From positions 2,731,235 through 2,795,234 of the forward strand of contig OZ242311.1 in NCBI GenBank assembly GCA_965207885.1: a stretch of DNA of 64,000 bases, given 5' to 3'. The position numbers were made by a program, and so were the translations under genes. Below, in pieces: positions 1 through 58,215 of this stretch. The notes under the pieces were generated by a model. That model made no database searches. It had not been told where the DNA came from and worked only from the letters and a program-made list of their open reading frames with translations. Positions within the stretch are counted from its first letter, which is position 1. Every line of letters begins with the position of its first letter. The DNA comes from Candidatus Latescibacterota bacterium (lineage in GTDB: Bacteria; Latescibacterota; UBA2968).

Positions 1-105
1 CTGGAGGCGTTTCAGGTTCGGCAGGTCGCAGATGCCGTTCAGGGCCGCTTCCAGCCACTTCGCCCCCATCTGATCGATGATGTTGGGTTTGTTTTGTGAC
101 TGCAT
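1..105 (-). CDS. 5' end of a gene running off the left edge (MQSQNKPNIIDQMGAKWLEAALNGICDLPNLKRLQ...), loosely sulfatase-like N-terminus
   Basis: ATG at 105 has GGGGAG about 6 nt upstream. The KPNII..DQ..16 aa..PNLKRL spacing resembles sulfatase N-termini, but the strand before DQ is about 4 residues short. It is too short for the ORF track. Confidence 0.35.
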   Translation of the reverse strand, partial: MQSQNKPNIIDQMGAKWLEAALNGICDLPNLKRLQ

Positions 106-167
106 AATGACTCCCCTGATGCGCTCTTTGAGCTTTTTAGTCGATAATCTTTGTTTCTACAGTCATT

Positions 168-1514
168 TTATTTTTCGAAAATTGTCCCGGGCCACGGGTA
201 AGCGTTGGATCCAGCCTCATCCTCGATGGGGCCTTCCGGCAGTGTGGCTTGCCAATCCATGACCTGCTCTGACATCTGCTTGACCAGGGTCTCTTCAAAT
301 TTGGCGTGATTGACGAGTTCCATTGGATCTGCAGGAATGTTGTAAAGTTCGACACGACTTCTGTCCGGGTTGAGAAGCAGCTTCCAGTCACCCTCGCGGA
401 TTGAAAGGATCGGGCTTTTGTGAAGGCAATGGCCGTGAACCCGAAATCGCCACTCCCACATCAACGGCGTCGTGCGATCTACCGAGTTACCTCGAAAGGC
501 GGCTGTCATATTCTCGCCCTGCAGACCAATGTTGTCGGGAATGTCCACGCCAGCGATGGAACAAAAAGTAGGTAACAGGTCTATGGCACATAAGGGCGTC
601 GTGTTGTCAACTTTGCCTTTTGGTCCGCCACTGCCTGGCCACCGAAGAATGAAAGGGGTTCGCACACCGCCTTCGTAGAGGCTTCTTTTACGACCTCGAA
701 AGGGACCAGAAGAACCGACGCCACTGTGTGACGCATTTCGGACGTGGATATCCTCAGGGCCGTTATCAGCTGAGAAGATGACAATCGTGTTGTCGGAAAG
801 GCCCAGTTGATCCAGCCGATCCATGAGCCGTCCAATGTGGTAATCTGCGTTGGTAACGACAGAATAGTAGATGCGTAGTGCACCTTTGTGTTTGTCTTCC
901 AGGCCCTGAGCGGTAAGATTCATATAGGGTTCCATCTGCTCCTCTGTAGGATCCAGAGTGGCGTGGGTGTCAAGCAACCACGCTTGAACAAAGAAAGGCT
1001 CATCTTGATGTCTTTCGATGAAAGATATGGTTTCATCTATAATTACCTCTGTAGATTGAGATCTGCCTTCGGGAATCTCAATGGGGGGTCCGACCGCATT
1101 GAATGTTTTGGATTCGTCAATTCCATAAGCCGTGGTATTAGGTGCTTCTTCGCCACTTCCCAGGTGCCACTTGCCAAAGTGGCCAACAGCATATCCACTT
1201 TGTTGCAGGAGATCCGTGATGGTCGTTGCATCGGGATCCAACCAATCTGGCATGCCGCGTAGGGCGTTCTGCTCGTGACGGGCAAAATGGCCATGTATGC
1301 CCCAGTGGGCAGGAAATCGACCCGTCATGACCGCTGCCCGGCTGGGTGAGCACACACCCGAGCAAACATAGAATTGTGAGAAGAGAATGCCCTGCGAAGC
1401 GAGCCGATCCAGATTTGGCGTTTTTACAAACTGGTGGCCGTAGCAACTCAAGTCACCCCACCCCCAATCGTCGGCGAAGACAAATACGATATTGGGTCTT
1501 TTCGATTCAGCCAT
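168..1514 (-). CDS. Cys-type sulfatase (arylsulfatase family), no signal peptide
   Basis: PNIVFVFADDWGWGD metal-site strand and the CSPSRAAVMTGR formylglycine (C-x-P-x-R) motif. AAGGAG lies 8 nt upstream of the ATG. Confidence 0.9.
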   Translation of the reverse strand: MAESKRPNIVFVFADDWGWGDLSCYGHQFVKTPNLDRLASQGILFSQFYVCSGVCSPSRAAVMTGRFPAHWGIHGHFARHEQNALRGMPDWLDPDATTITDLLQQSGYAVGHFGKWHLGSGEEAPNTTAYGIDESKTFNAVGPPIEIPEGRSQSTEVIIDETISFIERHQDEPFFVQAWLLDTHATLDPTEEQMEPYMNLTAQGLEDKHKGALRIYYSVVTNADYHIGRLMDRLDQLGLSDNTIVIFSADNGPEDIHVRNASHSGVGSSGPFRGRKRSLYEGGVRTPFILRWPGSGGPKGKVDNTTPLCAIDLLPTFCSIAGVDIPDNIGLQGENMTAAFRGNSVDRTTPLMWEWRFRVHGHCLHKSPILSIREGDWKLLLNPDRSRVELYNIPADPMELVNHAKFEETLVKQMSEQVMDWQATLPEGPIEDEAGSNAYPWPGTIFEK

Positions 1515-1554
1515 TGCGGTTCTCCTTAATAAAGTAGGCGGTAAGCCTTTGCCC

Positions 1555-2935: not shown

Positions 2936-4408
2936 TCAACGAGGATCGCCAGCTTCAATTGTTCGTTCCAGCAGCCTGCTGCGCATTGCTTCTTCCCGAT
3001 CTCGATAATCCGGATTTCCTGCCAGATTCACCAGTTCGCCCGGGTCGTTCTGCAAGTCGTAAAGTTCAGAACGATCATTCACATAATGTGCGTATTTCCA
3101 CTTCTCGTTTCGAACCATGCGACCCCGAGAAAGGAAGAACGTTCCCGACTCAACCAGCGGCAATTCAGGTACGGGCTCCGTCCGACTTATGCCGGCTTTC
3201 AGCGCGTCCAGTTCTGCTTCTGGTCCTCCCTCTGGCAATGGCTGACGGCTGCCAACTTCCGCATAGGTACAGTCTCTTTCTGGAGCCATACCCGACATCA
3301 TATCTGTCACACTTCTACCCTGAACACCCGACGGGATCGAGATTCCGCTACTCTGGAGTAATGTGGGCATCAAGTCGATTTGCTCAATTTGCAGTGCGTT
3401 TGTTGCACCATCCCGTGCATGTTCCAAACCCCTTACGATCAATGGGACCTGGACAATGCAGTCGTAGAATGCAGCAGTTTTCCTAATGAGTCCGTGTTCG
3501 CCCAGGTACTCACCGTGGTCACCTGTGGCAACAATGATGGTGTCGTCCCAACGACCAAGCGCTTTTAGTCCATCAAAGAATTTGCCCAGGCAGTCATCCA
3601 GGTGCCTGAGCATGCCGTAGTAATACGCCATTGTCTGGCGCAGTTGCTCGTCATCCATGAGATGCAGCCACCCGCCGTGATAATAGACTTGCTGAACGAA
3701 TGGTTTTGAGTCCAATTCACCCTCAGGTCTATGTGGGAGAGGCATGTCCTCTGGCCTGTACATCGTGGCAAAAGGTTCGGGAGCTCGATAGGGCGGATGA
3801 ACATCGGAAAAGCTCAACCACACAAACGAGGGCTCGACACCCTTCCGTTCGAGATAATCGAGGGCATGATTCACGTTGGCTCTTGCTGGAGATTCAGCAG
3901 GATCGAAAGGGTAGGTTCCGCCATACCAGATTGGGTTTGGGTGATCTCCCCAACGGAAACGTCTTGTTTGTGATTCGAACACGGATGGGTCGATGGGTAT
4001 TGCAGGCCCAGGAAATGGCTTCCCATAGGCTTCTCGCTGCTTTTGCCGAAGTGGTGACTCTTCAATACACGCTTCAAATCCTGCAGTTTCGGCATCTGGA
4101 AAACAGTGGTTTTTCCCAAATAGGCCACAGCCGACACCAGCATCTTTCAATAGCCCTGGCAGGTGAAATCCTTCCTTTTCTTGCATCAACAGCGTGTTGT
4201 CTCTGGAACCTGTAACGCTGGGATAACGACCCGTGAAAAATGCGACCCGTGATGCGACGCAGAGCGGAGAAGGTACGGTGCAGTTTTCAAACCTGATGGC
4301 TTCGCTGGCAAAGCGATCCAGATGAGGTGTCGCTCCGACGGGATTGCCATAGCATCCCAATGCGCGAGCGGCAAGATGCTCAATGGTGATTACGACAATG
4401 TTTTTCAT
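2936..4408 (-). CDS. sulfatase with variant C-x-A-x-R motif, no signal peptide
   Basis: MKNIVVITIEHL start and PLCVASRVAFFTGRYP motif. C-terminal sulfatase blocks are present (GDHGEYLGEHGL). Confidence 0.85.
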   Translation of the reverse strand: MKNIVVITIEHLAARALGCYGNPVGATPHLDRFASEAIRFENCTVPSPLCVASRVAFFTGRYPSVTGSRDNTLLMQEKEGFHLPGLLKDAGVGCGLFGKNHCFPDAETAGFEACIEESPLRQKQREAYGKPFPGPAIPIDPSVFESQTRRFRWGDHPNPIWYGGTYPFDPAESPARANVNHALDYLERKGVEPSFVWLSFSDVHPPYRAPEPFATMYRPEDMPLPHRPEGELDSKPFVQQVYYHGGWLHLMDDEQLRQTMAYYYGMLRHLDDCLGKFFDGLKALGRWDDTIIVATGDHGEYLGEHGLIRKTAAFYDCIVQVPLIVRGLEHARDGATNALQIEQIDLMPTLLQSSGISIPSGVQGRSVTDMMSGMAPERDCTYAEVGSRQPLPEGGPEAELDALKAGISRTEPVPELPLVESGTFFLSRGRMVRNEKWKYAHYVNDRSELYDLQNDPGELVNLAGNPDYRDREEAMRSRLLERTIEAGDPR

Positions 4409-4411: not shown

Positions 4412-5827
4412 TTAGCTCCTATCAACTTCCTCAGACCAGGCCGCGTACAGATCCTGCAGGCGTTCCACGACTTCGGGATGCTGATCAATCAGATCTTGAC
4501 TCTCGGAGGGATCTTCCTTCAGGTTAAACAGGCAGGTATTCTGGAGAAGCTCTGTGCGTTCAACGATCCCATCGCAGGACGGCTCTTGACCTCTCCTGCC
4601 ACCTTTATGCAACAGTTTCCAATCACCAGAGCGCACGGCATAACTATCGCCCCAGCGCCAGAAGAGGTCTCGCTGGTCTGCGATTTTTGTGACATCTTTT
4701 GGGATGGGTTGACCATCCAATCCTTCGGATAACTCGATGCCTGCTGCCTGTAAACAGGTCGGAAGAATATCGAGCGTTGAGATCGTCCTGTCACAGATCG
4801 TTCCAGATGCCGACTCATTTGGACGGGCGAGGATAAATGGCACGTGAATTCCGCCCTCCCAGAGCGTAAACTTGCTCCCGGCAAGCGGCAGGTTGCAGGC
4901 ACCGGTGTTCGGTGCGCCTCCGTTGTCTGAAAACATGATCACGATGGTGTTGTCGGCAAGCGATAGCTGATCCAACGTGTCCAGAAGGCGACCGATATTG
5001 TCGTCGAGGCAATTCAGGTTCGCCAGATAGTATCTGCGAAACTCGTCGGCATTGATCTCGCCGAGGATTCTATACCTTTTGAACCAGTCCCCATACCCGC
5101 CCATGGTCTCCGGGTCGTAGTTTGGAATCTCCCTTACGCCGTGCTTGTCGAGGTATCGTTTGGGCACCTGGTGGATCAGGTGATGCACGGAGTTGTAAGA
5201 GAGTGTCACAAAGAAAGGTTCTTCCTGATGGCTCTCGAGAAAATCGATTGTCGCGTCGGTGAAGATTTCCGTCAGATACCCTTGCCCAAATTCTTTGTAA
5301 TCCCGGTTGTGCATGAGCGGCCCAACAACCGCGCTGTGCCCTTTTGGATCGGGCGTGCGGTCTTCGATGTCTTTGGTGAGGAGGAAATAGTCGTGGCCAT
5401 GTGCTGAGAATCCGAGAAACTCGTCATAGCCATGGTTCAACGGATATTCGTGAGCCTCGTGATCGTGAAAGCCCAGGCCGTAATCGTTCTTACCGAAACG
5501 CGCTGTGGTATAGCCGTTAGCCTTCATGATTTCGGTGATGTTCTTTTCTGTTTCAGGATGTCCGCAAAAAAAGGAAGATTTCGGATCCCAACGCACCTGG
5601 TGTCTCCCCGTATTCCATCCGGCGCGGGAAGGGCTGCATACAGGAGCTGTCACATAGGCCTGTGAAAAGAGAACGCCGCGCTCAGCGAGCCGGTCCATGT
5701 TTGGCGTTTGCACGTCTGGCGCATGATGACTGAATGCAGTCAGATCGCCGTAGCCCTGATCGTCTGTAACAATGATGAGAAAATTTGGTTTTGTGCCCAT
5801 AATGATCACCCGCTCCAATCCCCGCAT
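4412..5827 (-). CDS. Cys-type sulfatase, no signal peptide
   Basis: KPNFLIIVTDDQGYGD and PVCSPSRAGWNTGR motifs. The start is 2 nt after the upstream stop; an alternative ATG is at 5800. Confidence 0.9.
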   Translation of the reverse strand: MRGLERVIIMGTKPNFLIIVTDDQGYGDLTAFSHHAPDVQTPNMDRLAERGVLFSQAYVTAPVCSPSRAGWNTGRHQVRWDPKSSFFCGHPETEKNITEIMKANGYTTARFGKNDYGLGFHDHEAHEYPLNHGYDEFLGFSAHGHDYFLLTKDIEDRTPDPKGHSAVVGPLMHNRDYKEFGQGYLTEIFTDATIDFLESHQEEPFFVTLSYNSVHHLIHQVPKRYLDKHGVREIPNYDPETMGGYGDWFKRYRILGEINADEFRRYYLANLNCLDDNIGRLLDTLDQLSLADNTIVIMFSDNGGAPNTGACNLPLAGSKFTLWEGGIHVPFILARPNESASGTICDRTISTLDILPTCLQAAGIELSEGLDGQPIPKDVTKIADQRDLFWRWGDSYAVRSGDWKLLHKGGRRGQEPSCDGIVERTELLQNTCLFNLKEDPSESQDLIDQHPEVVERLQDLYAAWSEEVDRS

Positions 5828-5829: not shown

Positions 5830-7311
5830 TTACCTGTCAGCCCCGCCGAGAAGCTGCTCTCTGGTCATTACCTTGATTGGTGGCAGGTTATCGACCATTC
5901 CCGCGTCCGTGCGTCGAAGCTCATCAATGGTCCCTTGCCGAAGTTGGGTGAGCAACTCGTGGTGATCGGATTCCAAAGCGAGGTTTTCCAGTTCCTCGGG
6001 GTCATTCTCGAGATCGTACATCTCTTCGATCTCCCCGGGGACGAGCCAGCGGATATATTTGTACTTTCCCATGCACAGAGATACCCACCAGGGGATAGGC
6101 GGATTGCCTATTGGCTCGCCACAGCCGACATCGGTATCTTCTCCAAAATAATGACCCGTACACTCCATCAGCAGCGGGCGATCCCATTCAGCGTTGGGAT
6201 CGGAGAGCAATAGTGTCAGGTCCTCCCCGTGCATCTTCCAGGGTTGTTTCATGCCGATCAACGAGAGAAAGGTAGGCGGGATATCCTGGCCGCCGATTGG
6301 CACATCGCATACTGTGCCTGCAGGAATCCGTCCCGGCAGCCGCATGATCATCGGTGCTTTGATATTGGCATCATAGGGCGCCACCTTGAGTCGAAAGCCG
6401 TGCTGTCCCCAGGCAAATCCCTGGTCCGACGTAAAGACGACCAGGGTATCATCCAATTGCCCCATCTCCTCTATGGTGCCGATCACCCTGCCAACCCCTT
6501 CATCCAGGGCGCACACGCCCCGGTTGTATTGTTGTTCCCAATCGGTGAGGGTCCGTCCATCCCGGATGCCTACCGGTTGGCCGTGATCTCCCTCGCGCCA
6601 AACACCGTAGTCCCGCATATGTGTCGCCTTGGTCGGGCGCGGCGGATAGATGTCTTCTGGCGTGGGGACCTGGGAAACATCTGGATAGTCCTGGAGATGG
6701 CGGTCAGCCACTTTCCAGGGGCCGTGTACTGCGTCATAGCACAGCCAGAGGTGCCAGGGCTTATCCGGTTCTTCTGCCCGTCCGCGGAGAAATTCAAGTG
6801 CATACTCCGTGTAGTTATCGGTAGAATAGCCGCCAACCGGTTCCGGCTCCCTCCCGTTGATACTCATATTCTGATTGACATAATAGGGCCCGTATTTCTC
6901 GGGTTGGCTGTGGTCCCAGATGGCAGAAAAATCCCAGTACCGACCGTGACCGTGATCGGGACCTGTGTGCCATTTGCCGACGATGCCTGTGTACCAACCG
7001 TTCTCGCGGAGATTCTCGAGCCAGTACGGACACTGGTCTGGATCGCGGACATAGTTTGGGTAGCTCGAGGGCAGGTGCATGCTCATCACGCCATGCGGCA
7101 ATTTTCCGGTCAGGTACGTGGCGCGTGAAGGCGCACACCAGGCACTGGTATAGCAGTTGGAAAAACGCATCCCCTCATGGGCGAGACGATCGATGTTTGG
7201 CGTACTGATCCACGAATGCGCCTCGGGGTAGCAACTCACAGACCGAAAGCTCTGATCGTCGGTGAAGATGTATAAAATGTTGCTCGGACGGTTCAATTGA
7301 TCATCGTTCAT
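5830..7311 (-). CDS. Cys-type sulfatase, no signal peptide
   Basis: NILYIFTDDQS, WCAPSRATYLTGK and FTSDQGFAWGQHG motifs. Confidence 0.9.
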   Translation of the reverse strand: MNDDQLNRPSNILYIFTDDQSFRSVSCYPEAHSWISTPNIDRLAHEGMRFSNCYTSAWCAPSRATYLTGKLPHGVMSMHLPSSYPNYVRDPDQCPYWLENLRENGWYTGIVGKWHTGPDHGHGRYWDFSAIWDHSQPEKYGPYYVNQNMSINGREPEPVGGYSTDNYTEYALEFLRGRAEEPDKPWHLWLCYDAVHGPWKVADRHLQDYPDVSQVPTPEDIYPPRPTKATHMRDYGVWREGDHGQPVGIRDGRTLTDWEQQYNRGVCALDEGVGRVIGTIEEMGQLDDTLVVFTSDQGFAWGQHGFRLKVAPYDANIKAPMIMRLPGRIPAGTVCDVPIGGQDIPPTFLSLIGMKQPWKMHGEDLTLLLSDPNAEWDRPLLMECTGHYFGEDTDVGCGEPIGNPPIPWWVSLCMGKYKYIRWLVPGEIEEMYDLENDPEELENLALESDHHELLTQLRQGTIDELRRTDAGMVDNLPPIKVMTREQLLGGADR

Positions 7312-7403: not shown

Positions 7404-8471
7404 TTAGACCTCAGAGCCTGCAACAGTGCGAACGGCCTCGCTCCAGTCATCCCAAAGCCCCGGACCTTCCGCGCGTGGTTCAGGAGGCGGGACGGCCGGC
7501 CCAAGTTCAAGTTCGTGGAGTTTTCTCACGTTGGGCGGTGGCGATGGTCGTGGCCCTTTGACATAACGGCCGTTGTATGTTCTGTCATATACAGACTTTT
7601 TGTAGGCATCATAAAGAATCATCTGTCGAATCTGCGGAGGGTTGCTGTAGTTCCGCGTTGCCGAGTGGAACATTCGTCCGTGCCACAAGACCACATCTCC
7701 CTCGTCACCAAAAAACTCAAAGGGCTCAATATTGGCGAGTGCGTCCTTGAGACCTGGGGGCTGCGGCAAAACAAATGCCGCAGCGCCGCTTTCCGGATGG
7801 GGCGAATGTAGAATTGAATAGCGAGCGAGATCTACAGAGTCCGGCTCTGCTTCGTAGAGCAAGCGATGACTGCCGGGAAAAAGGGCGATGCCACCTCCAC
7901 CCTTGGGAACCTGGTCAACGTATGCGCTCGCCACCAGATGCACCGGCTCGGGATCAATGTGTGCACCGGCACGGACGGCATCCGCCAGAGCAGGTGAGTC
8001 GCTCTTACGCTCTCTCGGCAGCACGCAATACATACCGCGCAACTCCTTGCCACCCCAGACCGGCCAACCACGCAACCGACTTCCACGCGGATCCGGATCG
8101 GCCGCAGAGGAAGTTACCTCTGGTATCACAACTTCACCTTTGCCGAGGAGTTGCTCAAACCAGGGGAATACGCGGCGTGGAAGCAAGTTGATCAGGTCCT
8201 CGTCGCCGGAGAGTTCACGCAGTCGCCAGCCGTGGTCACCGGTGCGATCATTCATGCCATCAGAGGTGCTTTGACGATCTGCCTCCGGGAGACCGTTTAG
8301 CCAGGTTTGAGGATCGTCTCGGCGCAAATGACTTGAGGTGTTTCCCGCCCACAGCCTGTCCCTCGCTGCAGCACAAAGTTTGGGGTCGAGGATCTTTCGT
8401 TTCACAAGGAATCCGTTCGTAATAAATTGTTGGATCTCTTCTGTACTCAGTGCTGCCAATGCTGTATTCAT
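7404..8471 (-). CDS. PhyH (phytanoyl-CoA dioxygenase) family Fe(II)/2OG dioxygenase
   Basis: LSTEEIQQFITNGFLVKRKIL N-terminal helix, HIDPEP (H-x-D), GGGIALFPGSHRL, and the distal His in WHGRMFHSATRN. The ATG at 8471 (MNTALAAL) has GAAGGG upstream. The ORF-track extension to 8537 covers a DNA repeat. Confidence 0.8.
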   Translation of the reverse strand: MNTALAALSTEEIQQFITNGFLVKRKILDPKLCAAARDRLWAGNTSSHLRRDDPQTWLNGLPEADRQSTSDGMNDRTGDHGWRLRELSGDEDLINLLPRRVFPWFEQLLGKGEVVIPEVTSSAADPDPRGSRLRGWPVWGGKELRGMYCVLPRERKSDSPALADAVRAGAHIDPEPVHLVASAYVDQVPKGGGGIALFPGSHRLLYEAEPDSVDLARYSILHSPHPESGAAAFVLPQPPGLKDALANIEPFEFFGDEGDVVLWHGRMFHSATRNYSNPPQIRQMILYDAYKKSVYDRTYNGRYVKGPRPSPPPNVRKLHELELGPAVPPPEPRAEGPGLWDDWSEAVRTVAGSEV

Positions 8472-8489
8472 GGAAATAACCCTTCTTTC

Positions 8490-8535
8490 TTCAATACTGA
8501 ACCATTGTACGGACTTCAATACCGAACCATTGTAC
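8490..8535 (-). promoter_or_regulatory. 21-nt direct repeat x2 (period 25) just upstream of the PhyH gene
   Basis: TTCAATACTGAACCATTGTAC at 8490-8510 and TTCAATACCGAACCATTGTAC at 8515-8535. On the minus strand each copy carries a TACAAT hexamer. Confidence 0.4.
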
Positions 8536-8639
8536 AAAAAAAAGAGTTGGATTTCAACAATTCTTAAAAGACAGGTACTTACGAAAGGCGATATATGTTA
8601 TTTGGGATTTTGCTCGAAAATCACCCTGAACAAATTCGC

Positions 8640-10284: not shown

Positions 10285-10453
10285 AGCTATAATCAGAAAT
10301 CCCAAAAACACGTTTGTCTTTGGCATAGACACAGTCTTTCTCCGCCACAGCAAGCTGTCGGTGGCGAGCAACAGTATGTTTGGGGTGCTCACACGCTATC
10401 TCCTGATTGCGATATGAAAATCCTATGCCAAATTGGGTCGCAAATCCATCAGC

Positions 10454-11923: not shown

Positions 11924-11942
11924 TGCCTTCTCCTTGCTGTCT

Positions 11943-12689: not shown

Positions 12690-12704
12690 GGAGAATCTCC
12701 CTTT

Positions 12705-12754
12705 CTATATGGTCAGGTAAACCAGACCCTGGTTCGCTTCTATTTTCTCTGTTC
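12705..12754 (-). repeat. conserved about 50-nt intergenic element, copy B
   Basis: Near-identical to 7328-7376. It sits about 15 nt upstream of the GTG of the PhyH gene at 12689. Confidence 0.7.
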
Positions 12755-12769
12755 CGGCCCCTATCTTTT

Positions 12770-12805
12770 TTAGACAACCGGCCTGATTTCAGGCGCGCGC
12801 GTTCC
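12770..12805 (-). pseudogene. orphan 3'-end remnant of a PhyH gene (..GTRAPEIRPVV*)
   Basis: The 36 nt closely resemble the 3' end of the PhyH gene at 17805-17840 (..ENGAPEIRPVV*). No upstream coding body or start is present. Confidence 0.35.
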
Positions 12806-12877
12806 ACTTGTTCCTGCGTTAATATTTGCTCCATTACATCTCCAGAAAATCAGTATTAATAAAAACACAGAGGGATT

Positions 12878-14305: not shown

Positions 14306-14400
14306 ATCTATCCCTCAAATTTGTCGTTCGCGGTATTCCCTACTTGTTAAACCAAAGAAGCTGCAATCCGTTTTCGCTCACAGTACTTTTTAATTTTTGT

Positions 14401-16975: not shown

Positions 16976-17040
16976 ATTTTGAGCGATTAAAATAAAGGGG
17001 AAAGAGAAATTCAGTCATACAAGTCGACATTTCGGCATTG

Positions 17041-17075
17041 CAAAAAAAGAGGCTATCCAATAGGGATAGCCTCTT
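17041..17075 (-). terminator. rho-independent terminator (usable in both directions)
   Basis: Perfect 11-bp stem AGAGGCTATCC/GGATAGCCTCT with a 5-nt loop. On the minus strand it is followed by T7, downstream of the gene at 17106. Confidence 0.6.
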
Positions 17076-27692: not shown

Positions 27693-27698
27693 AATAAA

Positions 27699-47627: not shown

Positions 47628-49866
47628 TCAGAGATGCCCGCCAGACTCCAGGATACGCTCTTCCACTCTGGGAGGGGTCGGTCGGAGTCCAAAATCTCTC
47701 CACCCCCAGTCCACATGGATTTTGGGCATGTCGAATTCAAAATACCAGCGAATACTGATGGGATCTCGATCGATACCAAAATATCCGAGGAAAAGCGCAC
47801 ATTTTCCGGTGACTTCCTCGATTACGTCGAAAGGGGTCAGATCGTGAAACTCTTCAATCTCTTCTTCCACCTCCAGGTAACGGTGCAGATCGGCTTCGTA
47901 AGACTCCGCCTGGTTGGGCCTGAGGCTCGTGAGATCAAGAGGCTCGTGCGCGTTCCACCTGGGCAGGTCATATTGCTCAGATCCATCCGGACAGAAGGTC
48001 CAGATTGGCGTGGACCATGCGTATTCACCGTCGATTTGGCGGAGACGAACGTAATAGGCTCCCTCTCGCAGCGGTATCTCGTCGGTGTGGGTCAGATCTA
48101 TATCGAGTGCATCGGGATGCCATGAGTGGAGACAACGGTCATTCCGAATCAAGTCTATTCGCTGCACGGGAGCACAGGCGTGCGCGCAAATAGTGATCTC
48201 AGCAGGCGCCGAGATTTTGGCCTCGCTGCCCGCAGTGTGTCCGTTGACATCTACGGTCAGGATGATGCGCGCCCCAGTGGTGGCGAAGGTGCGCCGATCC
48301 CGAATTGCCTTCCAGATTTCGTTACGCTCGCAGCGCGCTGCCCAAACGGCGGCGATCGGTCCGTTCCCATACCCGGTGTCTCGGAAGTTCAAACCAACAT
48401 TGTGCCACCTCCCGAAGTAGTCTTTGGCGGCGATTGGAGCGCCCATCGTAGTAAGGTGGGTGTCCCCCGATCCAATAACGGCTGGGCGAAAGCCACAGCG
48501 CAGGGCCCACTGGAGCACCCATTCAAAGCAGCCATGCCCGCTGGCGACCTCAAGAAGCGGCTCGTGACTGGGACGATAATCGTACCATTGGGGGGGACCA
48601 CCCCCGATGTGGGCTTCAAGGATCACATCCTCTCGATCTCCAAACTCGGCCATCACTTCGTCCATGGTGCAGAAGGTGGGGGGATAGGTTTCAGTCCATT
48701 CACGGTAGATCACGTTCCGATCCCCTCCAGGTCTCGGGTGAACCTCTGAAGCGAGAAAAGGAACGTAAGTCCCCGGCTCATCGTTGTTCCGATAGGCTTG
48801 CTGATAGGCACGCCACAGCTCTGGTCGATCCTCCTGGATTGGCGGAACGGCCGGTCCCGGCGCTCCAAAGTCCAGCCGGCCGACTCTCCGCAACTGTTCG
48901 TGTCTCCGCTCAGGATGAATCTTGAAGGTGGGATCGTCCAGTAGCGACATGCTAATGTCGCCCCATCCGTGACAATGGAGATCTCCCCAGAGGAGACGGC
49001 GGTCGTGCTGTTCCTTGCAGAGGATGGGATTGCTCACTGCCCTTAGACCGTGGCGTTTGTCTTCCGCGATCAGACGGATAAGGCCGGGTTCTGATATGCG
49101 AATGTCTTCCAGAATCACGAGCCCGCTGTCACTGGAGCCCAACGAGATGGATTTGGGCAAACCCTCAACCGCTGAAATCGGACCAGAGAAGGTCACTCGA
49201 CCCTCAAATTGTTCGCAGATATTGTGGTTTGCATCGAAGGCCATCAGATGCAGTGCAAAGGCCTCATCGGGCGTAACGATCGACGGGCCCAGAAGCCGAA
49301 GCAGCGCCGGCACAGGATTGGATGTGATGTGAATCCTGCAAGGATTGCAGGCCAGTTCCCGATAGACGCCATCCCCTGTCCGATCCACGGCGCTGGTAAT
49401 CCGCCCCAGAGTCGTTCCATCATAAACGGCGCTCCCCGCGCCTCCATAGCTCGAATCGCCAATCTGAATGGTGAAGGAATCACCGGTTTTCATCTCACCC
49501 TCATCGACCAGCACCTGGGCGAATCCCGGACGGTGGGACTGCTTTTCTGAATTGACGATCAGGCGTAAGGTCGCATCACATTGGGTTTTTAGAGTGACGA
49601 AATCACGTCCCTCTGGGTTGTAGTCCTGAATTCGATGCGAGAACAGAAACGAGTGCCGCTGAAAAAGAAAACCGCCGCCGGCAGTTATGGTTTCTGATGC
49701 GGTGGCAGTAATCTTCCACATCCCCAACTTGCCTGCGGGCAATTCCAGATCGTGCCCACAGCTACGTGAGCCGTCACTTCCGTGAAATTCGACCTCGAGC
49801 ATCGGGCTCGTTACCCGGCACAGGTTGGACTGTGATGCTGACGCGCTGCACTCGTGATTTCGGCAT
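47628..49866 (-). CDS. large PHP/DUF3604-like metallohydrolase, paralog A, with a frameshift near codon 23
   Basis: The body (track ORF 47628..49898) aligns with paralog B throughout (LLWGDLHCHGWGD, VIGSGDTH, CERNEIWKAIRDRRTFATTGARIIL). The homologous N-terminus MPKSRVQRVSITVQPVPGNEPD is encoded from the ATG at 49866 (GAGGAG 5 nt upstream) in a different frame. The first in-frame ATG of the body is at 49802. Confidence 0.7.
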
Positions 49867-49955
49867 AGGTTCTCCTCAACAGCCGTTCGACGAATCACGG
49901 TGCCAGAACAAGTTCATGTTCAAGATTCGGTGGATGGGATTCATTTGCAATGTGA

Positions 49956-50984
49956 TCAGAGACCACCGTTCCTCCATTTGTCCAGAACATCACTGGCGAC
50001 TTTCATGTTGAACTGATGTCCGCCATCAAATTGATCGACAAATAACTGATCCGAAGCGCCGGCTGCCCCATATGCCTTCCGCACTCTGACCAGGGCTCTC
50101 TCCGCCCATTCGTGTGGCGCCAGTCGATCCTCCAACCCCCATTCAATCACCATAGGGCGGGGGGCGATGAGAGAGAAGATCTCCGGCGTATCCCCATACT
50201 GGAGAAGTCCCGGGATGAGTTGTGCGCCGCACTTCTTCAAAGCCTGATAACGTTCCTGGTACATGCTCAGACAGCCCGAGGGTACGGCAATCTTGACCCG
50301 TGAATCAAAAGCAGAGATCATCATGGCCATTCGACCTCCGAGCGAAATCCCTGCACAGCCAAGCATCTCACTGTCGATATAATCAAGGGACTGAAGCACA
50401 TCGAGTGCCGCCTGTAGATCGCACAGATGTAGTGCCACAACGGTTGTGCCCATCAGCGTTGCACAAAGGTAGTTGCGCATGCAATAGTCAACCCGGGGAT
50501 TTGGATAATTGGACCGTCGTTCGCCAAACCCGCGTAGATCGGGCATCAGGGTGACGTAGCCCTGCTGTGCGAATTTCTGGCCGAAGTTGTATCCCTTCGT
50601 TACAATTTCTTCTTTCCGCTCGGGTGAATTGTCGATCCCCGCCACACCATCTTTCCCAAACTGGCTGTGCCCGTGCAGGCAAAGGAGACCCGGAGTCCGA
50701 TTCTGTAACTCCTTGGGAACGAGCAAATAAGCCGGTACGAACACGTCCAGCTCCGTCTGGTAGCGAATGCGATAGCGTACGTGGTCCCCACAATCCGTTT
50801 CAGTCAGGAATTCCAGAGAAAGATCCGATCGTTCCGGGCGAAGGCCCAACAGTTCCACTACTGTTGATCGAAATCGATCCTGCCACCTCTCCAGTTCATC
50901 GACCGTTGAGCCGTCGAATAGCATTGAAGGCTCAAACTGATCCAGCAGTTGCGAAAGGTCATCTTCGAAGATGATGGGTCTCAT
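49956..50984 (-). CDS. alpha/beta hydrolase (dienelactone-hydrolase/esterase-like), cytoplasmic
   Basis: LLCLHGHSQFG, the nucleophile elbow GCAGISLGGR, and the C-terminal block FDGGHQF. Confidence 0.7.
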   Translation of the reverse strand: MRPIIFEDDLSQLLDQFEPSMLFDGSTVDELERWQDRFRSTVVELLGLRPERSDLSLEFLTETDCGDHVRYRIRYQTELDVFVPAYLLVPKELQNRTPGLLCLHGHSQFGKDGVAGIDNSPERKEEIVTKGYNFGQKFAQQGYVTLMPDLRGFGERRSNYPNPRVDYCMRNYLCATLMGTTVVALHLCDLQAALDVLQSLDYIDSEMLGCAGISLGGRMAMMISAFDSRVKIAVPSGCLSMYQERYQALKKCGAQLIPGLLQYGDTPEIFSLIAPRPMVIEWGLEDRLAPHEWAERALVRVRKAYGAAGASDQLFVDQFDGGHQFNMKVASDVLDKWRNGGL

Positions 50985-51073: not shown

Positions 51074-52108
51074 CTATTCAAACCAATGAGGGGATTGCGG
51101 GCGCTTCGTGCGAATCGAATCCAGTGCTGCCTCACAGATAGAAACTATGCGCGCACCCCATCGAGCCGGGATCGGATTACTGATTTTGCCATCGAGCAGA
51201 TTCAGATAATCGACCACAGAGCGCCCCCAGCCGTGTCCACCAATTACTTCATGAGCAGATGATTCTTCGATTGGAACTGGCTCATGGCCACGGCGGAAGA
51301 GTTGGCCTTTCCACAACGTGCCTTCGGTGCCATATACGGCTAAAAAACCACCGCCCATTCCCTCGCCCATGCCATGTCCGGAGCAGCCGCTTGTCACAAA
51401 GACTTTGCCTGTGACGCCATTTTCAAATTGAAGGATCACAATATAACAGTCATCATCTGGAAATACCGGGATGCTGAGCTTATTGCTATAGGCATAGACC
51501 TCCGTAACCGGAGATTCAACCGTCCACAAAATCAGATCAAGTGGGTGGCAGCCGCCGCCCAGCAGGATATTCTGGGGATTTTGCCGATCAATGCGCCAGG
51601 GTGTGTGACTTTTACCCTCAGGTGAATAATGGCTCCACATGTCATGGATGTAATCGCCCTGGACAAAGAAAACATCGCCAATCTCACCGGATTGGGCCAT
51701 CAGTGCCATTTCGTGCCAGGGATGCAGGTAGCGCATGGTTTGGTCGGTCATGACATGCCGGCCACTCTCTGCCTCCGCGTCGAGGATGCGTTGGGCATCT
51801 GCCACTGTGGTAGCAAGCGGTTTTTCCACCAGGACGTGGCAGCCCTGCTCCAATGCCATGACAGTCTGATCGGCGTGCAAGTGATCCGGTCCTGCCACGA
51901 CTACAACATCGGGCTGCATTTCTCGCAGGAGTGGAGCGTACTCGTGGCCAGTCAAGGCATCCGGATATTGCTCATGCATCATGTCCAACTGTGCCTGCTG
52001 TGGATCGACGAGCCCCACAATTTCTCCACGTCCATCGGCGGCGGCTACCTGAGCCACATTACGGCCAGCGCTTCCACAGCCGCTAATCAAGAGTTTGTAA
52101 CGCTTCAT
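51074..52108 (-). CDS. Gfo/Idh/MocA-family NAD(P)-dependent oxidoreductase
   Basis: The ATG at 52108 starts MKRYKLLISGCGSAGRN (Rossmann fold). DVVVVAGPDHLHADQTVMALEQGCHVLVEKPLA motif. Confidence 0.85.
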   Translation of the reverse strand: MKRYKLLISGCGSAGRNVAQVAAADGRGEIVGLVDPQQAQLDMMHEQYPDALTGHEYAPLLREMQPDVVVVAGPDHLHADQTVMALEQGCHVLVEKPLATTVADAQRILDAEAESGRHVMTDQTMRYLHPWHEMALMAQSGEIGDVFFVQGDYIHDMWSHYSPEGKSHTPWRIDRQNPQNILLGGGCHPLDLILWTVESPVTEVYAYSNKLSIPVFPDDDCYIVILQFENGVTGKVFVTSGCSGHGMGEGMGGGFLAVYGTEGTLWKGQLFRRGHEPVPIEESSAHEVIGGHGWGRSVVDYLNLLDGKISNPIPARWGARIVSICEAALDSIRTKRPQSPHWFE

Positions 52109-52146
52109 GGCAAATATCTCAATTTTTTCTGAAATTCGAACGTTCA

Positions 52147-52932
52147 CTATCTTCTTTTTGCACTAATTTCAGCGATGGTATCACCAGTTATCTTGACGGT
52201 GTGGGTATCTACTCGCTCAACGACTTCACGGGTAGCTCTGGCCTCGGCACTATCAGCGGACTGATATTCGGTCGCGAATATATACGGAGATGGGATTGTA
52301 TAAGGTGGGATTTCCCCGATCCTCCCCATGGCCTTGCGAGCGCCTTCTCGGAGCAGATCCCGAGCTTTAGTGGGAGAGAGGGTGAGTGCAGCCGTGCGGC
52401 TGAGCCCCTCTTTCACGACAACGCTTTCGATGTCGGGAACATAACGTCGAGCCTCATCTACAGCAGCCCGATCCCCGCTGATGAAAACCGTGGGTACGCC
52501 AACCTCACCGGCATGGGCTATGTTGAAACCAATTTCGCCGATCAGTTCATCGTTCAACCAGCAGTTGGCAATGCTTCGGGAACTCCAGCTGTGACACAGC
52601 ACACCATCAGGGGTGTTCTCCATCGCGTGATGGCCATACAAAAATTGCACCTCAAATGTCAATCCCATCTCCCACGCAGAGCCTCTGGGGCGACCGTATA
52701 TCACCCGGGCTTCGCGGTGGATATGTTCGATATTGATTCCACCACTGCCGTGTCCGTCCAGCACGATAGGGTCAGTGGCGCCTCCTTCCAGAGCACCGTC
52801 TATGAGGGCGTTGATCTCCAGAGTGGCCAGATATTTTGCCTGTTCGTTGTCGCGCCCTCCGTCGTAAGTCTGAGTTTTGAAATCTACGACGCCAGCAGTG
52901 CCTTCCAAATCGCACAAGATAAGAATTCTCAT
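52147..52932 (-). CDS. M55-family D-aminopeptidase (DppA-like)
   Basis: MRILILCDLEGTAGV, VLDGHGSG, FLYGHHAM and FISGDRAAVDEARRYVP are collinear with Bacillus DppA. Confidence 0.75.
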   Translation of the reverse strand: MRILILCDLEGTAGVVDFKTQTYDGGRDNEQAKYLATLEINALIDGALEGGATDPIVLDGHGSGGINIEHIHREARVIYGRPRGSAWEMGLTFEVQFLYGHHAMENTPDGVLCHSWSSRSIANCWLNDELIGEIGFNIAHAGEVGVPTVFISGDRAAVDEARRYVPDIESVVVKEGLSRTAALTLSPTKARDLLREGARKAMGRIGEIPPYTIPSPYIFATEYQSADSAEARATREVVERVDTHTVKITGDTIAEISAKRR

Positions 52933-55647: not shown

Positions 55648-55687
55648 CGTATTGTATTTCTCAGGTTCTCCAAAAGTCTTGATCGCC

Positions 55688-57148
55688 CTATCTATTGAAG
55701 GGCTTCCGCCTCATCGAAGAATAGACGCCTTCCAGAGTCCCGGCCTTTTTATGCCATACCAGTGCCTGCTCATTGGCGTCTTTGACATACTTGAGTGCCT
55801 CGGTAATAGGCTCTCCCATAGGATCGAAATACCCGGTCTGGGACTTACCCGTAGCGTCATGCGTTCCGGTCCAGGTTTCGATATACCCACATGTCTGCCA
55901 GCCCAGCATAAAGGGCAGGTTCATGATTCCCTTTAAATATACGGCGTACTGTTTGCCTTTATCCTCGATTGTGGGGACTTCCACCCCCTTCACCCTATCC
56001 ATTTGGGGGCGCAGGAATCCATAGGCGTGGTCGCCGTTGATGATGGGCTTTCCCGTCTTTTCATAAATTCTCCGCAGTTTTTGTTCGTGAGCCGGCGTAT
56101 AGAAATCGTAATCCTGGATCAGCACCACATCTACGTAATTTTTCACAATATCCCACACCCAATCGGGTTGGGGCCTCGCATTTTGTATTTTATCGCCAAA
56201 AATCAAATGATTGGGGTCGTGTTTCCTGATGGCATCGTGGTGAGCCTTGAGATAAGCGTCAACGATTTTTGCATTCATAAGTGCCTGATCGGTAAATCCC
56301 CTTTTGGGATCCCTGGGCATCCCATACTCGCTTATTTCGAAAAAATCCTCCCACGTATTGACATTTAATCCGTACATTTTCCCAGCCTCAGCAGCGGAAG
56401 AATACTGACCCTGTAACACTCCAATCCAAACTCTCTTCCCTGGTGTCTTGCCAGGGCGAGACAAGATGTCCATGATCCAGGGATGGTGCTCAAAGCTTCT
56501 AATCGGCTTTCCCAAATTGTAAATTGTGTAAGCGGGTAGATCCTCGTAACTGTATCCTAACAAGTACTTTGAGTCCCTGTGCTTTGAAGTGTAGGCTTTG
56601 ACAAAATGGTCGAGTTTTTGTTTCCATGCAGGATCAAACACGTCGGGGAAGCGTTTGTCGGCTGACCACTGTTTGACCCGTTTGGGGTGAACATGGCTCA
56701 TTCGCAGTTTGCCAAAATAATACAACTTCAATTCGTTGCAATAATCTGTGGGCATTACGTGCGGATGATGAAAGGATAGGGTATTGAAACCGTAATCTTT
56801 ATGATCCTTAGCTATAATCTCCAGCCAGGTCCTGGCTCCTTCGGACTTAAAATCGACTCTTTTCCCCTTCATAATCCCGCCGCCGATTTTTTCGATCCAG
56901 TGTTCTTTGTTGTAACTGGCAAATCTGTGCAGGGGTCCCACGTGATTCATTCCAAGAGGAATAAAGGGTTCGCCATCACCGTTAACCATGGTCCAGATTT
57001 CGCCTACCTCTTCCAGGTGGACAAAATCTTTGTTCCCAATGATTCTAACTGCGTCTTCCTTGTCGATCTGAGCAAACGAATGACTAAATACGGCTGTACA
57101 AAACAAGACGAGCGTTGTTGCTCTGAATAGAGCTTGTGAAAGCATCAT
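55688..57148 (-). CDS. secreted protein, probable TIM-barrel glycoside hydrolase (family not recognised)
   Basis: Signal peptide MMLSQALFRATTLVLFCTAVFSHSFAQ. The size and alternating strand/helix-like pattern suggest a TIM barrel. I can name no catalytic motif with confidence. Confidence 0.55.
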   Translation of the reverse strand: MMLSQALFRATTLVLFCTAVFSHSFAQIDKEDAVRIIGNKDFVHLEEVGEIWTMVNGDGEPFIPLGMNHVGPLHRFASYNKEHWIEKIGGGIMKGKRVDFKSEGARTWLEIIAKDHKDYGFNTLSFHHPHVMPTDYCNELKLYYFGKLRMSHVHPKRVKQWSADKRFPDVFDPAWKQKLDHFVKAYTSKHRDSKYLLGYSYEDLPAYTIYNLGKPIRSFEHHPWIMDILSRPGKTPGKRVWIGVLQGQYSSAAEAGKMYGLNVNTWEDFFEISEYGMPRDPKRGFTDQALMNAKIVDAYLKAHHDAIRKHDPNHLIFGDKIQNARPQPDWVWDIVKNYVDVVLIQDYDFYTPAHEQKLRRIYEKTGKPIINGDHAYGFLRPQMDRVKGVEVPTIEDKGKQYAVYLKGIMNLPFMLGWQTCGYIETWTGTHDATGKSQTGYFDPMGEPITEALKYVKDANEQALVWHKKAGTLEGVYSSMRRKPFNR

Positions 57149-57177
57149 AACGGTTTCCTCTTTCTCTTAAACCTGAA

Positions 57178-58215
57178 TTAGTCGAGTTTTCCCTGATAGC
57201 AGGCATCGTCCCACAGGGTCGCACGGAAGCGTGGCTCATTACCCTTTATCACCGCAACCGCATCTTTGCACGCATCGGTGAAACAACGTCGGTGGCAGAA
57301 ATCCGTGCCCCCTGCGATGTGGGGGGTTGCCAGCACGTTGGGATGCCGACGAAACCAGGCATCTGGTGGGGGAGGTTCCGGTGCGAACACGTCAATCGCC
57401 GCAGCAATCTCTCCAGCCTCAATGCGTTCCCACAGCGGATCTTGCTCAACCACTGCCATGCGCGTGACAAGGACAAACAGAGCACCCCGTGGCAAGGCGT
57501 TGATGACTTCTCTGCTGATAATCTGCTGGGTTGTTGGCGTCGGAGGTAGGCCGACGACAAAGATTTCGCTGGACGCAGCCAGTTCCACAAGTGACGGGGC
57601 ACGCTCGACACCGTGTGCTGCAAGTGTGGCATCTGCGACATAGGGGTCGTAGGTTCTCGTGGCGCACCTGAATGGGGCAATCAGTTCGGCGTAACGCTGA
57701 TTGATGCTGCCGAATCCGGCGAGTCCTACACGCCTACCTGTCAGGTCCCCATAGACAAAGCCTGGTTTTTTCCACATGTGAGATTTCCATTTGCCCTGGC
57801 GTGCGAGGTAGAGTGATTCGGGAATATCGCGGATGAGATTGAGTGTCATGGCGAGCGCAAACTCGGCAACCGATGGCGTCATGCTGCGCGACGTATCAAT
57901 AAGCGGGATGTCGCGGTCTGCCAACTCCTGCAGGTCAACCCAACCATCGAAGCGATTGTCAAACGTCCCGGCTAAGACCTTCATCCGCTCGGCAGATTGC
58001 CAGTCTTGAGGGGTGGTTGCAGGACGGTGCCAGGGACCTATCACAATGCCATCCGCAACGGGAACACGCTCGAGGAATCGCGTGAATGCTTCTTTGTCCT
58101 GTTGATCAATCTGGCGGATGATTTCGACTTCACCCTGCGTCTCAAGGAATGCACAACCTTCCTCGGTGCATTGCCGCTGTCGATGGGAATCCGTTTCGAA
58201 CACAAGAATGTGCAT
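57178..58215 (-). CDS. D-isomer-specific 2-hydroxyacid dehydrogenase family
   Basis: GRRVGLAGFGSINQRY and DVFAPEPPP...ATPHIAGGT motifs. It is a paralog of the gene at 38191. Confidence 0.8.
   Translation of the reverse strand: MHILVFETDSHRQRQCTEEGCAFLETQGEVEIIRQIDQQDKEAFTRFLERVPVADGIVIGPWHRPATTPQDWQSAERMKVLAGTFDNRFDGWVDLQELADRDIPLIDTSRSMTPSVAEFALAMTLNLIRDIPESLYLARQGKWKSHMWKKPGFVYGDLTGRRVGLAGFGSINQRYAELIAPFRCATRTYDPYVADATLAAHGVERAPSLVELAASSEIFVVGLPPTPTTQQIISREVINALPRGALFVLVTRMAVVEQDPLWERIEAGEIAAAIDVFAPEPPPPDAWFRRHPNVLATPHIAGGTDFCHRRCFTDACKDAVAVIKGNEPRFRATLWDDACYQGKLD

Follow-up and report, generated by a model that had tools for sequence, protein, structure and literature searches.

A sulfatase-rich island of a Latescibacterota genome whose divergent PhyH-family oxygenases may be directed at sugars

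In the porphyran loci of marine Bacteroidota, oxidative chemistry has a place within sulfated-glycan utilization in the form of a cytochrome P450 6-O-methyl-galactose demethylase, a heme P450 with redox partners that belongs to a superfamily other than PhyH. Among the Fe(II)/2-oxoglutarate (2OG) oxygenases, AtsK is a TauD-family enzyme classified as SulfAtlas S2 (PMC5066984), and SqoD converts sulfoquinovose to 6-dehydroglucose, which is then reduced (PMC12951627). HygX has a variant facial triad, H-X-G ... E-X3-H, and a chemistry centered on C1'' (PMC13374393), and for one PhyH (PF05721) enzyme of Poribacteria, 2OG-dependent demethylation of 2'-O-methyl-cytidine has been demonstrated by experiment (PMC12709175). 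No Pfam domain is more abundant in Poribacteria than PhyH, with more than 1.9% of the genes (PMC3909097). The family is abundant in other dominant sponge symbionts as well; its role has remained almost wholly open for over a decade, and our literature search found no published link of PhyH to sulfatases or glycan catabolism. Here we analyze a 64-kb window of Latescibacterota DNA (assembly GCA_965207885.1, contig OZ242311.1, positions 2,731,235 to 2,795,234) in which 12 sulfatase genes lie among seven PhyH domains, one of them fused to a polysaccharide lyase. Judging from the sequences, we tentatively favor, at a little short of an even chance, a reading in which these PhyH proteins would be sugar-directed oxygenases recruited alongside hydrolytic sulfatases, without forming an obligatory two-enzyme unit.

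The window was analyzed by open reading frame (ORF) listing with Pfam and NCBIfam scans (Table 1). All 12 sulfatase ORFs match PF00884 (E 1e-28 to 3e-56) and carry the Cys-type C-x-[PA]-x-R formylglycine motif, with pairwise identities of at most 30%. The first five are consecutive (Sulf1-Sulf5; E 6e-38 to 3e-54; domain beginning at residue 2-25), and in 11 or 12 of the 12 the domain begins no more than about 25 residues from the start codon, which indicates that a signal peptide is lacking and that the enzymes are cytoplasmic. The lyase–PhyH fusion likewise has no signal peptide; signal peptides are present in the PL4 protein, the Pel-like protein, AXE1 and the orphan ORFs of 489, 894 and 486 aa. 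An attempt to read sulfatase specificity from PDB neighbors was uninformative, the best matches of Sulf6 being promiscuous PMH-like or GlcNAc-6-sulfatase enzymes.

Six of the seven PhyH domains pass the gathering score of PF05721 (22 bits). The remaining one, PhyH6, is a true PhyH paralog despite its sub-threshold score, given its BLAST matches to PhyH2 (E 2e-21) and PhyH7 (E 6e-18) and the metal motif that it has in common with them. The paralogs are 18-31% identical to one another. PhyH1, PhyH3, PhyH4 and PhyH5 (the fusion) have the HxD...H...R site for iron and 2OG, invariant in the PhyH4 and fusion orthogroups; PhyH2, PhyH6 and PhyH7 form one subfamily in which H-x-G/A replaces HxD and is accompanied by a relocated E-x3-H. 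By these motifs all seven PhyH-fold proteins look like catalytically competent Fe(II)/2OG oxygenases, drawn from at least four old subfamilies. With best PDB identities of about 20-25% they fall outside every characterized small-molecule hydroxylase clade, an outcome in keeping with an earlier preliminary description of this DNA, and their nearest characterized relatives all oxidize sugars next to oxygen.

The profile of PhyH2 returned HygX as the top sequence match in the PDB (5.6e-13), with the LHGG and E-x3-H segments aligned to those of HygX, and the PhyH2 structure model (pLDDT 88.9), the only one of the three in this subfamily so compared, recovered HygX chains at all Foldseek ranks from 1 to 15 (TM 0.67-0.76). 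EvdO1 appears in both the sequence and the Foldseek match lists. E184 and H188 are invariant in the PhyH2 orthogroup, which comprises 1241 clusters at 50% identity (E<=1e-10). A halogenase reading of the H-x-G/A motif was rejected, since the relocated E-x3-H carboxylate of HygX is conserved. Elsewhere, some HygX-type proteins have two PhyH domains in tandem, and single cases join such a domain to a GT2 glycosyltransferase and to an ion-transport/EF-hand protein that looks eukaryotic.

An alignment of 40 PhyH4 orthologues shows no variation, or almost none, at H138, D140, H218 and R229. The PDB matches of PhyH4 are weak (TlxI, DhiD, EctD, AviO1, SnoN), and it aligns over its full length with the active Poribacteria demethylase (24% identity over 264 aa, E 1.6e-13; other paralogs E>=0.08), a better E-value than that of its best PDB match, the two databases being of very different sizes. 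SnoK is the sole notable PDB match of PhyH3 (E 0.01). PhyH1 and the PhyH domain of the fusion (27% identity, E 1e-20) form one subfamily, for which the PDB gave no significant match. No window ORF matches TauD (PF02668) at E<=1e-3 (<=0.1 for re-scanned ORFs), and PDB searches with the PhyH proteins returned none of AtsK, TauD and Rv3406; membership in the AtsK/TauD family was rejected in the absence of any such Pfam or PDB match.

The fusion protein combines a PL38-like uronan (alginate/glucuronan-type) lyase at residues ~32-390 with a canonical HxD PhyH domain at ~452-675. Its lyase domain matches the Bacteroides ovatus structure 3nfv (3e-90, ~55% identity) and BoPL38 (4e-64), and retains the equivalents of the BoPL38 catalytic residues Y91, E236, N242, H243, R292 and Y298, whose roles are taken from a preprint (10.1101/2024.12.11.627697). 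The position of H297 is occupied by Gly, as it is in 3nfv, and an alignment with 3nfv and 9fi1 shows conservation of PYWWPD, E...NNH and R-x5-Y; the possibility that the lyase domain is degenerate and serves as a mere binding module was rejected on the strength of this retention of catalytic residues. The architecture is kept in about 37 protein clusters (67-98% identity), and H180-x-D182 and H265 of the PhyH domain are invariant across orthologues; the structure model of this domain is poor (pLDDT 52). The fusion is the strongest single argument, and one independent of the sulfatases, that at least one PhyH subfamily acts on uronate-containing glycans. No PhyH-sulfatase fusion was found among about 390 listed homologues or among the longer matches checked for domains.

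The preliminary description had reported 12 complete sulfatase genes alternating with seven PhyH domains, often at short distances, and had taken the two families to be co-amplified. The counts and coordinates hold (the sulfatase ends given there are upper ORF coordinates), with PF00884 and the formylglycine motif in all 12 sulfatases and with six PhyH domains recognized by Pfam and the seventh by paralogy and motif, and the short spacings are real: PhyH1 lies 92 nt upstream of Sulf5, PhyH4 about 31 nt downstream of Sulf8, PhyH6 28 nt beyond PhyH7 and the next ORF 19 nt beyond PhyH2, and the divergent region between Sulf7 and PhyH3 (15750/15957) measures 206 nt. The short same-strand gaps suggest co-transcription. 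Alternation was overstated: shuffling the order of the 41 genes gives 4.1 expected sulfatase-PhyH adjacencies against 5 observed (P=0.39), and strict alternation was rejected as a signal on this basis. Co-amplification is misleading as well, and a recent one was rejected, in view of the low identities within each family; the sulfatases and PhyH proteins are instead old, different subfamilies that were brought together, not recent duplicates. The unusual feature is their joint density in one locus (~21% of window genes are sulfatases and ~12-16% PhyH), not gene order.

The locus is syntenic, at 96-99% identity, with the complete Latescibacterota chromosome L013 (5.75 Mb) and with L008, an independent scaffold from a sponge metagenome (ENGE20-1 series). 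It is therefore not an assembly artifact. Named homologues come from metagenome-assembled genomes of Poribacteria, Caldilineaceae/Chloroflexota, Latescibacterota and 'Gemmatimonadetes', and the host belongs to a guild of uncultured symbionts typical of sponges. Related genomes (L001-L003, L010) have ankyrin-repeat/sigma-70 fusions, a reverse transcriptase and many transposases beside their PhyH genes, which are typical sponge-symbiont features. Between Latescibacterota species the island is mosaic: in comparisons of L014-L017 with window positions 5.8-33 kb, blocks are reshuffled and, inside a single locus, vary in identity between 86% and 99%, a pattern suggestive of recombination or module exchange.

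To follow the sulfatase linkage further, a 40-orthologue alignment of PhyH4 was scanned against one genome per GTDB species, yielding 79 loci with ±10 kb flanks, and sulfatases were detected with a hidden Markov model (HMM) built from the window's own genes, which recovers 12/12 of them in the window. The loci of five close Latescibacterota species (82-98% identity) have 3-6 sulfatases each, and one Caldilineaceae locus has one; by the same window-derived HMM and flanks, none was detected in ~60 Poribacteria loci or in those of Moanabacter, Anaerolineae and Trueperaceae. In four Latescibacterota species PhyH4 lies behind the Sulf6 orthologue, not behind Sulf8. Poribacteria PhyH4 has as neighbors a convergent PhyH7-like (HygX-type) paralog in 52 loci, an enolase-superfamily protein in 46 and a Zn-alcohol dehydrogenase in 40. 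This PhyH4/PhyH7-like/enolase/Zn-alcohol dehydrogenase module, which includes no sulfatase, is kept in 40-52 Poribacteria species (L020-L079, at about 10000-15500 of each locus); in the window, 19 kb separate PhyH4 from PhyH7. Within 10 kb of the fusion orthologue at 83% identity there is one sulfatase, and there is none so close to the orthologues at 71 and 68%.

Around PhyH2 orthologues, 10 sulfatases were found in 9 of 80 metagenome loci (651 kb in total). Sugar-related enzymes also occur in these surroundings: enolases of the galactonate/mannonate-dehydratase family in 11 loci (E 1e-85), compared with which the enolase of the 46 Poribacteria loci is more divergent; and inositol/glycoside-dehydrogenase-like GFO/IDH/MocA proteins in 10 loci. 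In a Theonella-symbiont Chloroflexi genome, a sugar-type ABC transporter lies near a PhyH orthologue. One sponge-metagenome contig brings together a TonB receptor, a second PhyH, BNR_2 and a sulfatase, and one Poribacteria locus (L005) a PhyH, a sulfatase, FGE, GFO and an aldo-keto reductase. Taken as a whole, the sulfatase-PhyH association is a locus-level one, recurrent and facultative, strong in one narrow clade only, and does not involve a fixed enzyme pair; the linkage across distant genomes that would mark a dedicated two-enzyme system was not found for the PhyH4, fusion or PhyH2 orthogroups.

In the favored reading, the window is a catabolic island of a sponge-associated bacterium, aimed at a sulfated glycan, or several, with rhamnose and uronate among the building blocks. 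It encodes exported lyases and esterases (PL4, Pel-like, AXE1) beside a large cytoplasmic set of sulfatases, PL38-like lyase, rhamnose mutarotase and dehydrogenases. The S1 sulfatases would desulfate hydrolytically, and the cytoplasmic substrates of the PhyH oxygenases would be oligosaccharides taken up by the cell or sugars already released, the oxygenases hydroxylating a C-H beside an O-substituent and so removing a group that blocks hydrolases and lyases. Their likeliest targets would be O-methyl or other O-alkyl groups, with the substituted ring carbon as a further possibility, and aldehyde or keto products might pass to the neighboring NAD(P) dehydrogenases. A substrate that carries sulfate along with other decorations may explain why the two families were recruited together. 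Among the conceivable outcomes, we would place O-methyl/O-alkyl removal ahead of oxidative desulfation, and the latter ahead of HygX-like anomeric oxidation with glycoside cleavage; O-demethylation has a family precedent in FJS/PHYHD1 and a functional one in the P450 demethylase of the porphyran loci.

Several observations weigh against this reading. Identity to the characterized relatives is only ~20-25%, so that the reaction type is not confidently transferable; the window shows no gene for formaldehyde detoxification; and its ORFs of at least 150 aa include neither a transporter nor a regulator. In the same set there is no TonB-dependent receptor, SusD or ABC transporter, and thus no SusC/SusD pair with a regulator of the kind that defines a Bacteroidota-type polysaccharide utilization locus. 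Pfam scans of the whole 64-kb window, as distinct from the rest of the genome, also found neither FGE (PF03781) nor anSME; cytoplasmic sulfatases without a visible transporter, regulator, FGE or anSME are an unusual layout for a glycan-utilization locus. The Poribacteria loci that speak for independence from sulfatases form one syntenic region and amount to approximately one independent observation. Finally, a sulfatase stands directly beside the PhyH2 orthologue, on the same strand, in 5 of the 80 loci (upstream in four, downstream in one), and this adjacency to varied sulfatases hints at some functional affinity for sulfated substrates. The sulfatases concerned are of differing subfamilies (Sulf7-, 8-, 9- and 11-like) and never of the Sulf6 type, the partner in the window; many metagenome contigs are short, and three of the five with the adjacency are so short that it is nearly forced.

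The reaction that the preliminary description had proposed would make the PhyH proteins oxidative sulfatases: they would hydroxylate the sulfate-bearing carbon, sulfate would leave, and GFO and 2-hydroxyacid dehydrogenases would reduce the resulting keto-sugar, which would allow esters to be handled that S1 enzymes cannot. As chemistry this is one possible option among several, with precedents in AtsK, Rv3406 and SqoD (PMC12951627; PMC5066984), and the crowding of PhyH and sulfatase genes in this locus and in those of four sister species, the five PhyH2 orthologues beside non-orthologous sulfatases and the combination of PhyH, sulfatase, FGE and GFO in Poribacteria L005 are all consistent with it. 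The PhyH2 orthogroup is moreover rich in invariant Arg, Lys and His residues beyond those of 2OG binding, which would suit an anionic substrate. We nonetheless regard it as improbable. All known oxidative sulfatases and sulfonatases, AtsK included, are of the TauD family, to which no window protein could be matched; the nearest characterized relatives perform O-demethylation or oxidative cyclization rather than ester cleavage; twelve diverse hydrolytic sulfatases already cover desulfation; and the roughly 390 homologues listed include no PhyH-sulfatase fusion. Linkage is absent for PhyH4 in the ~60 Poribacteria loci and for the fusion orthologues, and the co-occurrence of PhyH and sulfatases in other genomes, which had been suggested as a check, is largely lacking (0 of ~60 for PhyH4 in Poribacteria, 9 of 80 for PhyH2), leaving a two-enzyme desulfation system unsupported by conservation. 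What survives of the proposal that the PhyH proteins act on sulfated sugars is the carbohydrate direction, borne out by the fusion, the HygX-type motif and fold and the sugar-enzyme neighbors; nothing singles out the sulfate-ester carbons. The PhyH expansion of Poribacteria that the preliminary description mentioned is likewise real and still without an assigned mechanism (PMC3909097), and PAUC34f and Poribacteria are reported to be relatively enriched in sulfatases (PMC7081726).

The absence of any relation between the two families is a serious rival as far as the stand-alone PhyH paralogs are concerned, even if we rate it as unlikely overall. Two hyper-expanded families of sponge symbionts would then be co-located by chance or rearrangement, and the stand-alone PhyH proteins would act on non-carbohydrate small molecules such as lipids, amines, phosphonates or modified nucleosides. 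The known PF05721 substrates (among them phytanoyl-CoA, ectoine, 2-aminoethylphosphonate for PhnY, and nucleosides), the abundance of the family in Poribacteria (>1.9% of genes; PMC3909097), a gene order like that of random shuffling, the loss of linkage outside a narrow clade and a mosaic, rearranged locus that carries IS elements agree with this; yet seven PhyH domains in 58 kb (~12-16% of genes) lie several-fold above the Poribacteria genome-wide frequency (~2%), the co-location survives rearrangements in five species, the short same-strand spacings suggest co-transcription with sulfatases, and through the fusion at least one subfamily is connected with uronate glycans. That HygX-type paralogs cleave glycosides oxidatively is quite improbable. 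They would abstract the anomeric (or C4) hydrogen in the manner of HygX, and after hydroxyl rebound in place of cyclization the glycosidic bond would collapse to an aldonolactone or keto-sugar. Such chemistry, driven by 2OG and confined to the cytoplasm, would parallel that of LPMOs or of 3-keto-glycosides and might substitute for missing glycoside hydrolases. The HygX-type motif and fold, the chemistry of HygX at C1'' (PMC13374393), the recurrent adjacency of orthologues to aldonate-dehydratase-family enolases and GFO dehydrogenases, and the lack of any classical Glyco_hydro Pfam family in 58 kb despite 12 sulfatases point this way; on the other side, the proposal is purely inferential, no precedent exists for a catabolic glycoside-cleaving 2OG oxygenase, the window has no enolase-superfamily gene, and the hydrolases that seem to be missing might be among its several large orphan ORFs and its BNR propellers. 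A PhyH that matures the sulfatases by hydroxylating C-beta of the active-site cysteine to give formylglycine, in place of FGE, would fit the finding that all 12 are Cys-type and cytoplasmic with neither FGE (PF03781) nor anSME in the window. We consider this highly improbable: one conserved motif would hardly need seven highly divergent paralogs, in most lineages the orthologues of PhyH are found without sulfatases, Poribacteria L005 has both FGE and PhyH, and an FGE gene may lie elsewhere in the 5.7-Mb genome.

Beyond the favored reading of sugar-directed oxygenases recruited beside sulfatases lies a broader proposal, which we put forward as unlikely at present: the PhyH radiation of sponge symbionts could represent a new class of cytoplasmic carbohydrate-active Fe(II)/2OG oxygenases that oxidize the O-substituted sugar carbons of imported oligosaccharides, stripping sulfate esters, methyl ethers or even glycosidic bonds beyond the reach of hydrolases, with the HygX-type subfamily and the lyase-oxygenase fusion as signature members. 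If a carbohydrate role is confirmed, the enzymes of marine sulfated glycan turnover would comprise 2OG oxygenases next to hydrolases, lyases, sulfatases and P450s, affecting the annotation of carbon cycling in the sponge holobiont and of 'missing' glycan-degradation steps. Should the substrates of the PhyH proteins be unrelated small molecules instead, these genes are bystanders in a sulfatase-rich island of an ordinary kind. The fusion, the HygX-type subfamily of more than 1,000 clusters and the operon-like pairs with sulfatases are handles that make a carbohydrate role directly testable.

The rest of the island is summarized in Table 1. Across the 58 kb, the Pfam scan found no classical Glyco_hydro family, and five sizeable ORFs (894, 699, 489, 486 and 292 aa) have no Pfam match; NCBIfam gave none for the four largest, and a PDB search of the 894- and 699-aa ORFs yielded nothing meaningful. 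All five are kept in synteny in sister species and are candidates for glycan-active enzymes of a new type. The two DUF3604 proteins are paralogs of 728 and 756 aa with a CehA-McbA-type metallohydrolase region, the shorter lying on the minus strand downstream of Sulf12 with the DegT gene in between. Mobile elements are found within the island and at its right edge. A 1.35-kb TnpB element (HTH_OrfB, OrfB_IS605, Cas12f1-like TNB) between the 894-aa orphan and rhaM is missing from loci of 94-98% identity (L008, L013, L016, L017) and is therefore a recent insertion; it has no TnpA and no RNA annotated by Rfam, a scan that gave zero matches in the whole window. A 1.0-kb insertion with a DUF6036/DUF2204 nucleotidyltransferase (AbiEii/MNT-like) separates PhyH3 from PhyH4, which in L008 and L013 are ~6-77 nt apart, and on its right side the island is bounded by an IS3-type transposase with a small upstream ORF, at which point GC content falls to 45%.

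Table 1. Coordinates of genes and inserted elements in the 64-kb window
Feature	Position	Strand	Family matches and remarks
Sulf1	168-1514	-	PF00884; Cys-type S1 sulfatase
Sulf2	1555-2895 (ORF upper coordinate also 2958)	-	PF00884; Cys-type S1 sulfatase
Sulf3	2936-4408	-	PF00884; Cys-type S1 sulfatase
Sulf4	4412-5827	-	PF00884; Cys-type S1 sulfatase
Sulf5	5830-7311	-	PF00884; Cys-type S1 sulfatase
PhyH1	7404-8537	-	PF05721 5e-7; canonical HxD...H
Pectate_lyase_2 / C5-epimerase-like (Pel-like), secreted	8740-10284	+	PF06917 1e-19; signal-peptide-like N-terminus
Orphan ORF, secreted, 489 aa	10454-11923		downstream of PhyH2
PhyH2	11943-12689	-	PF05721 6e-12; HygX-type, LHGG ... FTEATMH; downstream of Sulf6
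Sulf6	12878-14305	-	PF00884 6e-55; CTPSR motif; cytoplasmic S1
Sulf7	14401-15750 (ORF upper coordinate also 15858)	-	PF00884 4e-56; CCPAR motif; cytoplasmic S1
PhyH3	15957-16724 (ORF from 15807)	+	PF05721 1e-5; canonical HxD; divergent from Sulf7
Insertion, 1.0 kb	16745-17754		ORF 17106-17567 (-), nucleotidyltransferase
PhyH4	17805-18659 (ORF to 18707)	-	PF05721 9e-16; W-H-R-D...H...R; downstream of Sulf8
Sulf8	18691-20304	-	PF00884 1e-28
Sulf9	20323-22314	-	PF00884 3e-39; C-terminal HEAT region, HEAT_2 3e-6
BNR_4 propeller	22409-23836	-	
Orphan ORF, secreted, 894 aa	23856-26540	-	
TnpB element, 1.35 kb	26527-27871		TnpB ORF 26568-27692 (-)
Rhamnose mutarotase (rhaM)	27884-28198	-	
Orphan ORF, 699 aa	28233-30332	-	
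PL38-like lyase–PhyH fusion (PhyH5)	30382-32616	-	Alginate_lyase PF05426 1e-85; PF05721 1e-16
PL4 rhamnogalacturonan-lyase-like, secreted	32641-34572	-	PF14683 2e-29, PF14686, RhgB_N; signal peptide after internal Met
Sulf10	34693-36102	+	PF00884 1e-48; CQPSR motif; convergent with PhyH6
PhyH6	36127-37053	-	PF05721 E 0.055, 14.2 bits (below cut-off); HygX-type, PHGG...FTEALCH
PhyH7	37082-37909	-	PF05721 2e-9; HygX-type, LHCA...IPECLTH; precedes PhyH6
2-hydroxyacid dehydrogenase	38191-39237	+	
CE15-like esterase	39299-40282		
Sulf11	40303-41763 (ORF upper coordinate also 41967)		PF00884
Orphan ORF, 292 aa	41801-42679		
DUF3604/CehA-like protein	42648-44834	-	
DegT aminotransferase	44813-46114		
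Sulf12	46173-47552		PF00884
DUF3604/CehA-like protein	47628-49898		
CE15-like esterase	49956-50984		
GFO/IDH/MocA	51074-52147		
Orphan ORF with signal peptide, 486 aa	55688-57148		
2-hydroxyacid dehydrogenase	57178-58215	-	
M55 peptidase, BNR_2, AXE1 esterase	within 38191-58215		
IS3-type transposase	61963-62814		rve, HTH_21; small upstream ORF 62844-63155

Among known systems, the orthosomycin oxygenases HygX, EvdO1, EvdO2 and AviO1 (PDB 4XC9-4XCB, 4XBZ, 4XAA) provide the best sequence and fold match of PhyH2, and the H-x-G/A...E-x3-H motif of HygX is common to PhyH2, PhyH6 and PhyH7. In oligosaccharide antibiotics, these enzymes oxidize glycosidic carbons at C-H or O-H; oligosaccharides are the substrates of HygX, EvdO1 and AviO1, and the attack is on a C-H that adjoins oxygen. 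HygX is, however, only ~20% identical to PhyH2 and is a biosynthetic, orthoester-forming enzyme of a Streptomyces antibiotic cluster, whereas the island of the window would be catabolic; the equivalent of its Lys137 is not evidently conserved in the window proteins, and Pfam scans of the window found no glycosyltransferase or aminocyclitol biosynthesis genes. The 2'-O-methyl-nucleoside demethylases FJS/PHYHD1 are PF05721 proteins like the window PhyH and are proven to act on a sugar methyl ether (PMC12709175), but they are not orthologous to PhyH4, their substrates are free nucleosides, and that study reports no genomic link to sulfatases or lyases.

AtsK/Rv3406 (SulfAtlas S2) and SqoD release sulfate or sulfite by Fe(II)/2OG alpha-hydroxylation, and the sequence of sugar oxidation and keto-sugar reduction in the SqoD pathway is the logic that the preliminary description had followed; all three are TauD-family (PF02668) enzymes in contrast to the PF05721 proteins of the window, and S2 activity is known only on alkyl sulfates. 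The catalytic residues of the PL38-type alginate/glucuronan lyases BoPL38 and BACOVA_01668 (Tyr, His, Arg, Asn and Glu) are kept in the N-terminal domain of the fusion, which differs in being joined to an oxygenase, in lacking a signal peptide and in having Gly at H297, as in 3nfv. The Poribacteria PhyH expansion (Kamke et al. 2014, PMC3909097) involves the same family and ecological guild, and PhyH4, PhyH2 and PhyH7 have Poribacteria orthologues; that study drew no link to sulfatases or glycans and proposed a PhnY-like role for a few members, whereas the present locus is a sulfatase/lyase island of Latescibacterota. The PhyH expansion of Poribacteria and the enrichment of sulfatases in PAUC34f and Poribacteria are already published; what this locus adds is the HygX-type subfamily, a lyase-oxygenase fusion that is conserved and, in Latescibacterota, an island rich in sulfatases.

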